In this document: piece by piece, positions 1 through 4,106 of the stretch
Position numbering within the stretch: position 1 is the first letter of the stretch
Layout of the letters: each line of letters starts with the position of its first letter
IMG/VR virus record: IMGVR_UViG_2667528155_000002
From: a virus
Lineage: Duplodnaviria > Heunggongvirae > Uroviricota > Caudoviricetes
Reading direction: 5' to 3' (one strand)
DNA length: 4,106 nucleotides
Translations under genes and position numbers: made by a program
The notes under the pieces: model-generated
The model's input: the letters and a program-made list of their open reading frames with translations, nothing else
The model's database searches: none
What the model was told of the DNA's origin: nothing

Positions 1-174
1 ATCTTTATCAGAGACGGATTCCTTCACCAGATCAGCATGATGCTGATAGCCATTAAAGAAGACGTTCAGCACAACGGCGCTAAGGGTTGCGAGCATAATG
101 CCGCTATGCAGCAACGGTTGCAGTACGGCCGGTAACTTAGAAAAGAAATCGTGAGAGAGCGTCGGAGTCATGCC
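1..174 (-). pseudogene. NCS2 (xanthine/uracil permease family)-like C-terminal fragment, in frame with the phage sheath-like ORF; candidate host-gene remnant
   Basis: Minus-strand translation of about 171..1 reads [57 protein letters not shown]. It contains a 21-residue stretch with no charged residues, and the pattern LP..L.PLL.SGI......A.VLN..F resembles the final TM helix of NCS2 permeases as I recall it (for example ...[20 protein letters not shown] in xanthine permease). This is from memory and unverified. Confidence 0.4.
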
Positions 175-1311
175 AACGTTAATCTGTACGTCAGCGTAAT
201 GAACCGCGCCTGCAAGTTTTATTGCAGCCTGAATCACCGGAGCCTTACGGGCTTCACGTTCTGATTGTGCCTGTTCATCCAGCGGCTGGGCGTATACGTA
301 ATAACCTTTGGGCAGCGTGTCACCTGATGACAACTGGCCAAGGTCGCCACCGTTCCATACGCCCGGAGCAATCAGTCCATTCTGAACGGCCTGATCCAGT
401 GATTTTTCAACATTTGATAACAGTCGGGTAATACCGGCTTCAGTCTGGGGAACCTTCGTGGTGCTGGTATAAAGCAGGTTATAGAGGTTGGTCTGCACAT
501 AATTCTGTAACCAGTCCAGGCCGTGGCGTTCATCAAAGAAATCGCCGTTAGCCATCACTCCCTGCTGGAGGATAGCTGTATCATTCTGGTAGTACACGAA
601 CACATTGCAGTTTTTTGCATCAAGTGCCGATGCCTGGCTGACTGTCAGTGTTTCATACCCGACACCCGGCTCCTGCTTAAACTTGAGCGTAATCGCGGTA
701 TTACTGCCATTGAAATTAACCGTGAATGCCCGGCCAAATGCAGATAACGCAGCGAATTTATTACCCGATGAATATTGTATAAAACTGCGTGAATATCCGG
801 CGCTTTTCAGTTTTGATGCCAAATCATCTCTGGATGCAGTCTGCAGGCATTTCTCATCGCTTGTCGTAATCGCCAGAATACGGCTTACAGAAGAGGATTC
901 GATCGCCGCAGCCACTTTCAGCCAGTCTGCATCCGGAATATCTGCATCGTCTGCAATCCCCAGCCCATACCATGAAGTATAATCAAGCATGGCATTCACA
1001 GCCTGCTCCAGCGTCTCAGGCGTGGCCTGTTCGCTGTCTCCCTTCGTTTTCACCCAACGACCAACAAAAACCTCCTGAGGTTTCGGTGATTGTGAGAAAA
1101 ACACCTGCGCAGCTTTATATTCTGGTGATTCCACGCCAAAATCTTTTCCAATATCTTCCGCGGCAGAATAACGGCGAATGCGCTCACTTACCGGAATGAT
1201 TGTGGACGGGCCGAGAATGAGTAATGCACCAAAATTTCGCCCTGATGCTGCACGCGGCGACATGATCACATCAACATTAACAACGTTTGATACAGGCAAG
1301 CCCTGTGCCAT
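1..1311 (-). CDS. Phage tail-sheath-like structural protein (DUF3383-like N-terminal ~380 aa); 3' end runs off the window; the last ~55 in-window codons look like a permease transmembrane helix, so the ORF may be chimeric
   Basis: I translated the minus strand by hand: ATG at 1311..1309 preceded by GGAG (1323..1320, 8-nt spacer), then 437 sense codons to position 1 with no stop. It is missing from the ORF track, apparently because it has no in-window stop. N-terminus [40 protein letters not shown]... matches my recollection of DUF3383 sheath-like proteins. It is last in a capsid-to-tail gene order. Confidence 0.8.
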
Positions 1312-1314
1312 AGC

Positions 1315-1878
1315 TTAATCTCCGAAAAAGATGACTGGTGCTTCCACCAGCGATTTAATACCGTACTCGCGCACAACCTTCCGGCGCAGGCGCACCGTCA
1401 TATCGTAGCGGCGGACCCATTGCTGATTAATAAGTTCAGGGAAGGGAGTCAGACCTGTGTAATCGCCAAGAGACAGCCCCAGCGCATTCAGTGCTGCATT
1501 GTTCTGCGGCACAGATATACCGTCACGAAACCGGGACGCATACACCATCCCCGCCGGTCCATAAAACGAAGCCATACACTCAATCGTTTCATGCCGCCAG
1601 AGCTGAGAGCCATCATCGGTCTGTCTGGTGAATGCCGGACTGTCATCACCTGACCATCCGATAACCCCAAACGCACACCAGTTCGTTTCAACCGGTAGCA
1701 GTGGCGGCTGCTCTTTCTGCCAGCGCGGGCGAACCATCCCGGCAGACAGGCCGGAAACGTTACGCATCCACTGGCTTAACAGCCTGTCGAGCGCTTCGTC
1801 ATAATCCGGATCGCCACTGGTTGGTATTAACCATCCGCGCTCTGTACTGGTGTTATTGCTCAACCGGAGTTCCCCCAT
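1315..1878 (-). CDS. Hypothetical phage neck/tail-completion protein (187 aa from ATG 1878; 188 aa if the TTG at 1881 is used)
   Basis: ORF track 1315..1881. The first codon at 1881..1879 is TTG and the second at 1878..1876 is ATG. Stop TAA at 1317..1315. It overlaps the 3' end of the upstream gene by 26 nt, with no strong SD, so translational coupling is likely. It sits between the adaptor-like gene and the sheath-like gene. Confidence 0.7.
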   Translation of the reverse strand: MGELRLSNNTSTERGWLIPTSGDPDYDEALDRLLSQWMRNVSGLSAGMVRPRWQKEQPPLLPVETNWCAFGVIGWSGDDSPAFTRQTDDGSQLWRHETIECMASFYGPAGMVYASRFRDGISVPQNNAALNALGLSLGDYTGLTPFPELINQQWVRRYDMTVRLRRKVVREYGIKSLVEAPVIFFGD

Positions 1879-2242
1879 CAAACGGCATCAACTCACAATG
1901 CGCCTGAACGAATCCGGCACCATACGCTGTATACGGGTCGACGAAAGTCACACGATAATCACGGCCCTGATACGTCACGATATCGGCATCACGGCCAGTC
2001 TGTCCCTGTGTCAGTCGCTCAGTCGTCACAATCAGAATTGCACCACTGATTACCTGCCCGGCCTGCATACGACGGTTTTCCAGAGAGCGATCAACAGTTA
2101 CGACTCCGGCAAACTGCTTTTTAACTTCACTGTCGCTGCCGATCCCGTCCTCATCCACCGTTTGCACTCGGCGTGTTACCCACAAATTGAAGCCGCAAAA
2201 ATCGGGGTCAAAAAGCACATCTGTTACATCAAGAGTCGGCAT
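1853..2242 (-). CDS. Putative phage head-tail adaptor / head-closure-like protein (129 aa)
   Basis: ATG at 2242..2240 preceded by GAGGG (2253..2249, 6-nt spacer). Stop TAA at 1855..1853. It overlaps the upstream gene by 14 nt. Its size and position after the connector-like genes fit an adaptor role; the family call is a weak impression only. Confidence 0.7.
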   Translation of the reverse strand: MPTLDVTDVLFDPDFCGFNLWVTRRVQTVDEDGIGSDSEVKKQFAGVVTVDRSLENRRMQAGQVISGAILIVTTERLTQGQTGRDADIVTYQGRDYRVTFVDPYTAYGAGFVQAHCELMPFDGGTPVEQ

Positions 2243-2783
2243 CTTTATCCCTCACTACATGGGTAATAGCTCTGCGATATTGCCCGGTGTCAATTAATGG
2301 TTTCGCCAGATCGGTTCCGGGAGATTCGCCAGCAACACGCCGGGCAAGTTCCAGTGTTGCCCCCTTGCGCCCCCGACGAGCCCGGGCTTCAACAGTGCTG
2401 TCAGCAAGCGGCGTAAAGCCGGTAATAGTCATGTAACGCCTGACGCCATTAGCGGCCAGCGTTCCGGCACGGTTGAGTGCGCGTTCTGCTCCCGCAGCAT
2501 TACCATCAAGAGCAGCCTGCGCCGCGGTTTTGAGCTGCGGCACCGTCTGCTCTTCTGCCGATTTAACGCCGGGGACCAGGTGAGGTCGTGGCGGGATGTT
2601 CTGCTCTGGTGAGCCGTATTCGTTGAGGTAACCGATGCCCGCATTACCAAACGGAACATCATCCCGCCCGCTGTCTTCCGAAGGGATGCCGACCAGCACA
2701 TCTTTTTTGGTTAACGACCTGAGCGCATCCAGAATGGCCTTAGCGTTATCCACCCTCGTTGTTACACCGCTTTTGAAACTCAT
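2229..2783 (-). CDS. Putative phage neck / virion-morphogenesis (tail-completion-like) protein (184 aa)
   Basis: ATG at 2783..2781 overlaps the upstream TGA stop (2782..2780) in an ATGA arrangement. The protein is Ala/Arg-rich with a C-terminal [13 protein letters not shown] motif reminiscent of phage tail-completion/gp10-type proteins; this assignment is tentative. Confidence 0.7.
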
Positions 2784-3187
2784 AGCTGGCGACCGCCTGC
2801 ACCGAACATCGTGATCAACTGATAAAATTCAGCGCCATATCGGGTGTTATTCCAGAAACCTGCATCAGGATTCAGCGTCGCGCTGGTGTCATAGCTGACG
2901 CTTACCTTGTCAACGGACTTTGAGGACTGAACACCATTGGTTGAACCGCCCGGCCCGCCAGCCAGCATCGCCCGGCTGTCTGCCGCCCAGAGCGTCATGT
3001 AGTGTGCAACGAACAATCCGGCAAAATACGGAAACAACTTTTTGCCGGTGACGTTTTCGCTCAGCAGTTCATCGGCCAGATTCAGACGAAACTGGATTTG
3101 CGCTTCGGGATATTTGGCAGGGTCAGCAAACTGCGGGAAGTCGCGGCGAAAATCACTTACCGCTGGCAGATTTTGATTCTTTGGCAT
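2780..3187 (-). CDS. DUF4054-like phage protein (head-tail connector candidate, 135 aa)
   Basis: ATG at 3187..3185 preceded by GAGGT (3197..3193, 5-nt A-rich spacer). The translation ...[20 protein letters not shown]...VSVSYD...[12 protein letters not shown]... matches the FR..FP.FAD..YP.AQ... pattern I associate with DUF4054. It lies directly downstream of the capsid-like gene. Confidence 0.75.
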
Positions 3188-3374
3188 TTTTTACCTCGTT
3201 ACGCGCGTCTGTGGCTTTGCCAACGGATACTTCCGCGTGCGCACGAGTGAACCAGTGCGTGGCAACGTCTTCCTCCACAGCATGACGGCCTTTAACAAAC
3301 TCGCGCCGTGAACCGTCGGGAAGCGTGAGCACAAACGGGGTATGTACGTGTATTACTGCATTATTTTTTGCCAT
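3153..3374 (-). CDS. Small phage protein of unknown function (73 aa, Lys-rich C-terminus)
   Basis: ATG at 3374..3372 preceded by AAGGA (3386..3382, 7-nt spacer). It sits between the capsid-like gene and the DUF4054-like gene, and its 3' end overlaps the next gene by 35 nt. No family recognised. Confidence 0.6.
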
Positions 3375-3387
3375 CGGGTCATCCTTA

Positions 3388-3408
3388 ATGGCCCCGCCAG
3401 GGGGCCAT
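3388..3408 (-). promoter_or_regulatory. GC-rich stem-loop (8-bp perfect stem, 5-nt loop) in the capsid / small-ORF intergenic region
   Basis: Plus strand 3388-3395 ATGGCCCC and 3401-3408 GGGGCCAT are exact reverse complements, with loop GCCAG at 3396-3400. On the mRNA it lies 7 nt after the capsid stop (TAA at 3418..3416) and ends 1 nt before the SD of the next gene. There is no U-tract, so it is not a canonical intrinsic terminator. Confidence 0.5.
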
Positions 3409-3415
3409 GTGGCTG

Positions 3416-4105
3416 TTAAATGCCATCAACGTACGAAATGGTTTCTTTGTACACTGGCTCAACCGCACCCAGCTTGCCGTAGTAAGTGACGATCTGATAC
3501 AGACCGCGATACTGCACCGGCACGCTCTGAAGCGGAACCAGCGGGTAGCGAACGTATTTTTTATCGTTGGTGTACGCAACCATGCGATCCTTTTTCCTCA
3601 CACCACGGCCTTTCAGCCATTTAACCGCGCGGATATTCAGCGGAACACCGTTCTGGTGATAGCTGATGGTGTTGGTCTGAAGATACGTCAACAGGGACTG
3701 GTTACCCGCAGATGAAACGATGATGCTGGACAACAGAGCAAACTGCTCAGGCGGGATCAGCAAATCACGCGGAACCACAGAGTAACCGGAAGCGGCCCAC
3801 GCATCAGACAGCACCTGGTTAATGCTTGCGCGGATTTCGTCCGGTGTTGAGGTTGCCCACGTTTTGGCAGCGTTGTTGACAGGCACGCCGTCCAGGGTAA
3901 CAAGGCCTTTCAGGTTTAATGCGGAATCGCCAACATATACCTGTTCATCGTTATCCATCTGCCATTTCAGTTGCATACCGTCATACTTCTGCGTATCAAT
4001 CGGGCGGCCGACCTGCTGAGCAGCCTGCAATTCTATGACCGTCCAGCCAAGTTCCATCCCCCACAGGTTCAGCGGGTTACCGGATTTGCCGATATCCACG
4101 TTCAC
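3416..4105 (-). CDS. Putative phage major capsid protein, C-terminal 229 aa; 5' end lies beyond the window
   Basis: The reading frame is open from the window edge (the first in-window codon is GTG, so the true start is upstream) to TAA at 3418..3416. It is the first and probably largest gene of the module, followed by a stem-loop, a small ORF and a DUF4054-like gene, which is the typical capsid position. Family identity is not verified. Confidence 0.75.
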   Translation of the reverse strand: MNVDIGKSGNPLNLWGMELGWTVIELQAAQQVGRPIDTQKYDGMQLKWQMDNDEQVYVGDSALNLKGLVTLDGVPVNNAAKTWATSTPDEIRASINQVLSDAWAASGYSVVPRDLLIPPEQFALLSSIIVSSAGNQSLLTYLQTNTISYHQNGVPLNIRAVKWLKGRGVRKKDRMVAYTNDKKYVRYPLVPLQSVPVQYRGLYQIVTYYGKLGAVEPVYKETISYVDGI

Positions 4106-4106
4106 G

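Follow-up and report, generated by a model that had tools for sequence, protein, structure and literature searches.

An in-frame junction between a prophage tail-sheath gene and host uacT in a myovirus late-operon stretch from Escherichia coli

We analysed a stretch of 4,106 nucleotides (nt) from the virus record IMGVR_UViG_2667528155_000002 (the window, by which we mean the whole stretch at its full length), which carries predicted capsid, neck and tail-sheath genes of an Escherichia coli myovirus and, at its left end, a piece of the host gene uacT. ORF calling showed that the window is filled by seven consecutive open reading frames (ORFs) on the minus strand, all of them open, in the order capsid, small ORF, adaptor, 184-residue ORF, collar, terminator and sheath. 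A gap of 41 nt separates the capsid gene from the small ORF; the next four boundaries towards the sheath are overlaps of 35, 4 (ATGA), 14 and 29 nt, the last between collar and terminator, and a gap of 3 nt precedes the sheath gene. The 29-nt overlap of the 188-residue gene shortens to 26 or 11 nt if one of its alternative annotated starts (ATG at 1878 or TTG at 1863) is used. An earlier note on this DNA had described such tightly packed genes with these overlaps and the 3-nt gap, as the ORF coordinates bear out, and had read them as a contractile-tail morphogenesis module in canonical order. That reading is upheld by Pfam, by PHROGs and by DNA identity to annotated prophages and phage records: in hidden Markov model searches all seven proteins matched phage families in PHROGs, and four have Pfam families. 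Two points of the note need correction. The window edge truncates the capsid gene, leaving 229 of its 313 codons, and the seventh ORF is a hybrid in which only 174-1311 is sheath, while bases 1-178 are host uacT. The phage module as such is already known and ordinary and adds nothing new; the sole unusual feature of the window is the in-frame sheath-uacT junction, which was found in no public sequence searched (coordinates of all features are given in Table 1).

The hybrid ORF runs from an ATG at 1311 to base 1 without a stop (437 codons) and consists of sheath residues 1-379 followed by UacT from G403, with the reading frame kept. Its sheath part scored 338.8 bits against the Pfam family PF11863 (DUF3383/E217_gp31_N; gathering score 34.9) and fell into PHROG 205 (tail sheath) with an expectation value (E) of 1.6e-135. 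It also matched the sheath gp6 of Vibrio phage XM1 (PDB 7kh1, E 4.4e-41), and its residues 5-376 aligned end to end with residues 4-379 of the sheath of cyanophage Pam3 (8hdr_M, E 1.1e-23). Compared with the intact 381-residue protein, which ends in ...ADVQINVVR* and is present on at least 1,000 contigs, the window copy is two codons (V, R) and a stop short. What the earlier note took for an apparent truncation of the sheath gene is a junction with unrelated DNA 8 nt before the sheath stop; the gene is not eroded and has kept 379 of its 381 codons. Wild-type copies have the native free C-terminal arm of the sheath, which the window copy lacks. In the reference copies the tube gene (DUF3277/PF11681, Phage_Tube_PhiTE) begins 10 nt after the sheath; directly downstream of the sheath in the window, uacT sequence stands there instead.

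The host part, bases 1-178, is 100% identical to uacT in many genomes, and a match was present in 5,355 of 5,426 E. coli genomes. At the protein level, the C-terminal end of the NCBIfam xanthine-permease model pbuX matched fusion residues 375-420 (E 9.9e-9). The full fusion is predicted to comprise 459 residues, sheath(1-379)-UacT(403-482), with ~80 residues from UacT, 58 of them inside the window. The N-terminal ~402 residues of UacT are absent from the window locus, which therefore does not encode the full-length 482-residue permease. Over windows of 19 residues, the hydrophobicity of the hybrid ORF peaks within the appended UacT piece (Kyte-Doolittle maximum 1.84), in a stretch that resembles a transmembrane segment. 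In a three-way alignment with per-base comparison, the identities to sheath and to uacT overlapped in the five bases CAACG alone. A random blunt join gives a match of at least 5 bp in just 0.46% of cases, which argues that the join was made by a process that uses microhomology, be it within the cell or through a polymerase in vitro. Since just five bases are common to both sides, a k-mer mis-join is unlikely.

Table 1. Features of the 4,106-nt window, from its left end
Feature	Coordinates	Strand	Basis or remark
3' part of the core gene uacT (ygfU, urate/H+ symporter)	1-178	minus	UacT V402/G403 to D460, in frame with sheath
Junction microhomology CAACG	174-178	none	Common to sheath 3' end and uacT (three-way alignment)
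Tail sheath, codons 1-379 of 381	174-1311	minus	Pfam PF11863; PHROG 205
Predicted neck/tail terminator, 188 residues ('gateway' in E217)	1315-1881	minus	Pfam PF23961 Phage_tail_terminator_9
Candidate collar/connector of the SPP1 gp16 'stopper' type, 129 residues	1853-2242	minus	PHROG 939; fold matches suggestive only
Neck protein, 184 residues	2229-2783	minus	PHROG 222 'tail completion or Neck1'
Predicted head-to-tail adaptor, 135 residues	2780-3187	minus	Pfam PF13262 DUF4054/E217_gp27
STY1053-family phage-associated protein, 73 residues	3153-3374	minus	NCBIfam NF047914; 35-nt overlap with adaptor gene
Predicted major capsid protein, running off the right edge	3416-4105	minus	C-terminal 229 of 313 codons; N-terminal 84 codons beyond the edge

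Judged by sequence identity, the phage part of the window comes from the late (virion) operon of a known temperate E. coli myovirus and spans that operon from capsid to sheath. In 19 complete E. coli genomes a prophage beside yfhH matches bases 174-4106 with 100% identity (0 differences in 3,933 nt), and the phage stretch is present at a coverage of at least 80% in 306 of 5,426 complete E. coli genomes. The intact prophage is ~38 kb long (e.g. NZ_AP022003.1, 1,343-1,378 kb). In NZ_AP022003 and in GTEN_23 it carries head genes (small and large terminase, portal, head morphogenesis, scaffold-like, cement, capsid and neck), tail genes (sheath, tube, chaperone, tape measure, baseplate and fibres) and genes for holin, endolysin, spanin, antiterminator, repressors, primase-helicase and DNA polymerase. 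The same bases are also 100% identical to four GenBank phage records, vB_EcoM-606R2 (ON470579.1) and three sisters. Positions 1-2254 of ON470579.1 are the host genes tadA, yfhB and yfhH, and because these host flanks are included, the 'complete genome' records of this group are prophage regions and not virion genomes; a literature search returned no paper mentioning vB_EcoM-606R2. As 306 genomes and 119 IMG/VR contigs share the wild-type arrangement, it is implausible that a mis-assembly accounts for the assignment of the module.

Three observations concern this phage family more broadly. A Shigella flexneri record of 41,686 bp that is filed as a plasmid in PLSDB (NZ_CP012733.1) matches the sheath gene with 98.7% identity at 5567-5792; it has the same length as the IMG/VR entry IMGVR_UViG_2877274432_000001 and has the look of a member of this family that was assembled as a free circle, a hint at excision or replication of the phage. 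In strain 5CRE51 (NZ_CP021175.1) the sheath segment lies at 25245-26409 of its locus (L131). Since this genome has that segment, an empty yfhL-yfhH site and no prophage within 25 kb of uacT, the family uses at least one other integration site. Finally, the intact prophage has, outside the window, a gene for a TIR-domain protein beside the DNA polymerase gene (L001 and L136 43431-43933), which may be anti-phage defence cargo.

The remaining proteins of the window fit the same picture. The capsid fragment exceeded the threshold of Pfam PF09950 (Major_capside) by far (280.6 bits versus 26.8), covering profile positions 16-251 of 251, which identifies it at the profile level as an HK97-fold major capsid protein. 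It belongs to PHROG 264 (major head protein) and matched the Pam3 major capsid 8hdt_A in the PDB (E 2.5e-16); in the intact prophage locus the full-length gene measures 942 nt (L001 23243-24184). The 73-residue ORF behind it scored 72.2 bits against NCBIfam NF047914 (cutoff 40) and falls into PHROG 6497, a family of unknown function (E 5.9e-52), with no match in Pfam; its counterpart in Salmonella phage SEN34 is annotated at 133 residues, and the gene call for locus L004 omits the ORF. For the 135-residue protein, the Pfam score against PF13262 was 98.1 bits (threshold 23.9), the PHROG label is virion structural protein, and the head-to-tail protein gp27 of Pseudomonas phage E217 (8fvh_N) was matched in the PDB with E 4.1e-10. 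A profile score above threshold and homology to a solved adaptor together identify it, by sequence, as an adaptor of the E217 gp27 type, the role of which in E217 has been described (PMC10329688).

Further along the neck, the 184-residue protein belongs to PHROG 222 (E 8.1e-49). It had no match in Pfam, in NCBIfam or in the PDB (searched both with the single sequence and with a profile), and its AlphaFold2 (AF2) model, with a predicted local distance difference test (pLDDT) score of 61, gave no significant fold match. The 129-residue protein is a member of PHROG 939 (E 6.3e-44), labelled 'head protein' there and 'head-tail adaptor' by NCBI; sequence and profile searches against PDB sequences gave no match. 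Its AF2 model was poor (pLDDT 47.9). Nevertheless, 14 of the 15 best Foldseek matches in the PDB were neck proteins of phages, prophages or gene transfer agents, among them Pam3 8hdr_A, XM1 7kjk, SPP1 7z4w and the Pa193 collar 9b42_A, with weak scores obtained from this poor model (E 0.007-0.15, template modelling scores 0.3-0.45). The modelled fold is thus only suggestive of a hexameric beta-barrel that would lie below the adaptor. The 188-residue protein scored 119.4 bits against PF23961 (threshold 27) and is, by this Pfam threshold, assigned as the neck/tail terminator. It is a member of PHROG 1973, an unknown family (E 6.7e-91), its match to the Pam3 terminator 8hdr_G was not significant (E 0.28), and its score against the NCBIfam LIC_12616 family (19.8) was below the cutoff of 28. 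An Rfam scan of the window gave no match at E ≤ 1, promoter-like and terminator-like sites in the window were no commoner than in shuffled sequence, and its repeats were just short chance pairs.

From homologues with solved structures, the working of the module can be sketched as follows. The HK97-type capsid protein would build the head, and a dodecamer of the DUF4054 adaptor would dock on the portal. Below it, a hexamer of the small beta-barrel collar would step the symmetry from 12-fold to 6-fold, and a terminator hexamer would cap tube and sheath. The 381-residue sheath would polymerise around the tube, where an inter-subunit beta-sheet formed by its terminal arms would hold the lattice and allow contraction. 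In both Pam3 and E217, a four-stranded intermolecular sheet is built from the two terminal arms of the sheath and a C-terminal beta-hairpin. This sheet makes most of the inter- and intra-hexamer contacts in Pam3 (PMC9942802), and in the extended sheath of E217 these elements are the sole link between subunits (PMC10329688).

How could the sheath gene have come to lie in front of uacT? In NZ_AP022003 the sheath gene is on the plus strand (1,365,431-1,366,576) and uacT on the minus strand (975,555-977,003), and in K-12 purL and yfhH have the same orientation relative to uacT. In strain CREC-544 sheath and uacT are 0.334 Mb apart; the range in reference genomes is 0.33-0.39 Mb, with the two genes on opposite strands. 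As the genes are not co-directional, a simple deletion cannot make a head-to-tail fusion, and the co-directional fusion in the window must therefore stem from an inversion, from phage DNA inserted off-site, or from a chimera produced by template switching or by mixed strains. No prophage was found within 25 kb of uacT in five genomes inspected. A deletion starting from a prophage that adjoins uacT was thus rejected, given the strands, the distance and the lack of a prophage near uacT. An apparent inversion in GTEN_23 was also discarded, as that record is merely oriented differently.

The sequence comparisons show what each part is, exactly where the breakpoint lies and how rare the junction is; beyond this, we infer that the junction is a genuine product of recent, microhomology-mediated illegitimate recombination in the source DNA, and assign this a probability of roughly 55%. 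Two routes would lead to it: the ~0.33-0.39 Mb that separate the prophage from uacT were inverted, or phage DNA was inserted off-site into uacT. The inversion would create the window junction together with a reciprocal one, in which uacT(1-402) is joined to GTTCGCTAA ('VR*') and the tube gene; a single crossover at CAACG between a circular phage genome and uacT would create the same two junctions. The chances are about even that one such in-vivo event split the tail operon of an otherwise intact and recently active prophage, knocked out uacT and left an in-frame sheath with a C-terminal membrane helix. Several points weigh against recombination in the source DNA. By BLAST, bases 1-400 are spanned by no complete E. 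coli genome among 5,426 and by no record of the phage and plasmid collections; the junction 38-mer was absent, by exact search, from GTDB representative genomes, JGI metagenomes and IMG/VR; and neither the predicted 459-residue fusion nor the 437-residue partial product was present among 15 billion proteins in an exact look-up. The best 120 of 3,658 sheath homologues are all 379-381 residues long and cover the sheath part only (87% of the query), and none of them is fused. No complete genome examined has both halves of the window at 100%, an absence that would fit a strain not yet sampled, a phage that arrived horizontally or a chimera of two strains, and does not decide between them. Moreover, an intra-replichore inversion of 0.33-0.39 Mb would orient many genes against replication and ought to carry a cost. 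The junction is also known from the window sequence alone.

The absence of the junction from every collection searched, while the wild-type sheath-tube junction is present in 119 IMG/VR contigs and 306 complete genomes, speaks at the same time for an artefact: an in-vitro chimera (e.g. by polymerase template switching), or DNA of two E. coli strains joined together, with a normal prophage and a normal uacT in the source. We regard this as possible, if somewhat doubtful. The strain alleles lend it some weight. The exact phage allele is limited to the 19 genomes mentioned above, and at window position 114, within the uacT part, the window has A, while K-12 and the three genomes with the exact phage allele that were checked have G (a synonymous single-nucleotide polymorphism (SNP) in a Leu codon, TTG/CTG). 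Among the 60 genomes listed with the uacT allele of the window, two also carry the phage, CREC-544 and 5CRE51; CREC-544, which was checked, has the window's uacT allele, but its phage is only 98.6% identical (27 mismatches in 1,883 nt). In addition, template switching likewise uses short microhomologies. However, a chimera from plain blunt splicing or ligation is ruled out at about 200:1 by the 5-bp microhomology, a de Bruijn mis-join needs about 21 or more shared bases where there are 5, and a chimera of a single molecule should not normally survive the consensus assembly of an isolate genome. A single synonymous SNP in 178 nt is little evidence for two strains, and temperate phages can pass from one lineage to another.

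The earlier note had placed the module in a probably degenerate prophage. On this reading, the tail genes of an old cryptic element would have been eroded or deleted until a truncated sheath came to lie next to chromosomal DNA. The tube, tape-measure and baseplate genes that should follow the sheath are indeed replaced by host DNA in the window, but they may lie elsewhere in the source genome, behind a reciprocal junction. Slow decay is nonetheless improbable: the 3,933 nt hold no substitution, frameshift or stop relative to intact prophages, and hence no erosion of the phage genes; the sheath is short of just two of its 381 codons; and the usual prophage site beside yfhH lies far from uacT, with the gene on the opposite strand, so that a deletion cannot create the junction, nor do the inspected genomes have a prophage in the neighbourhood of uacT. 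What may survive of the note's claim is that this prophage copy is disabled, through the junction and not through decay, which the window alone cannot confirm. A functional fusion, in which a domesticated, membrane-anchored sheath-like protein would serve a tailocin-like or contractile-injection-like host element, would explain why the frame is kept across the junction and why the appended UacT C-terminal segment is hydrophobic and transmembrane-like. We consider it very improbable, as an in-frame join has a one-in-three chance of arising anyway, no second example was found among the 3,658 homologues, and the undivergent phage part leaves no time for selection to have acted. Furthermore, the C-terminal arm of the sheath must be unencumbered if it is to insert into the beta-sheet between subunits (PMC9942802, PMC10329688).

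If the junction was indeed made by recombination in the source DNA, we infer the following consequences. The tail operon would be broken, with the tube and baseplate genes no longer behind the sheath; the hydrophobic extension of 80 residues on the sheath arm should block or poison assembly of the lattice; and uacT would be disrupted at its own locus, with the loss of its last ~80 residues. The prophage copy would thus have been disabled in a single step and not by gradual decay. This would be a very recent structural mutation that hit both a prophage and a purine-salvage transporter, and it would be of modest interest for the question of how lysogens lose prophages. A chimeric junction would instead point to a problem with the quality of the source assembly. 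Automated prophage callers would score the window as phage and miss the 178 host bases at a breakpoint that is not an attachment (att) site, and calls of a boundary or of a 'degenerate prophage' made from such a contig would be wrong.

Annotations of the phage DNA of the window already exist in phage records and in hundreds of E. coli genomes, and virion structures have been solved for its protein families; the phage is a relative of SEN34 and of the 'minimal myophage' structural type, as in Pam3, XM1 and E217. Closest is the vB_EcoM-606R2/yfhH prophage, which has the same seven genes in the same order with the same overlaps and is identical over 174-4106. It differs in having the intact end of the sheath, followed by the tube, chaperone, tape-measure and baseplate genes, where the window has uacT. 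Salmonella phage SEN34 (Brunovirus SEN34, NC_028699.1), the nearest named phage of a different host, has its genes between major head protein and tail sheath in the same order, with 74% nucleotide identity over 99% of the 3.9-kb phage part (a genus assignment needs whole-genome identity); it differs in its host, Salmonella diarizonae, and is distinct in sequence at the species level. Cyanophage Pam3 (8hdr, 8hdt; PMC9942802) has a sheath of 384 residues and a like neck logic of adaptor, connector, terminator and then sheath, and the numbering of those of its gene products that were resolved agrees with the window order (capsid gp7, adaptor gp9, connector gp11, terminator gp12, sheath gp13; PMC9942802), although its sequences are distant and its host is a cyanobacterium. 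In the Pseudomonas phages E217 and Pa193 (8fvh, 9b41, 9b42; PMC10329688) the collar and gateway roles map to the 129- and 188-residue proteins, and the current Pfam names of DUF4054 and DUF3383 are E217_gp27 and E217_gp31_N. E217 differs in its sheath of 504 residues with an extra domain A, and it is without a counterpart of the 184-residue protein between adaptor and collar. Vibrio phage XM1 (7kh1, 7kjk) provides the best sequence match to the sheath among solved structures, as well as a neck protein among the fold matches of the 129-residue protein; its sheath differs in having 497 residues, of which the C-terminal ~220 alone align well.

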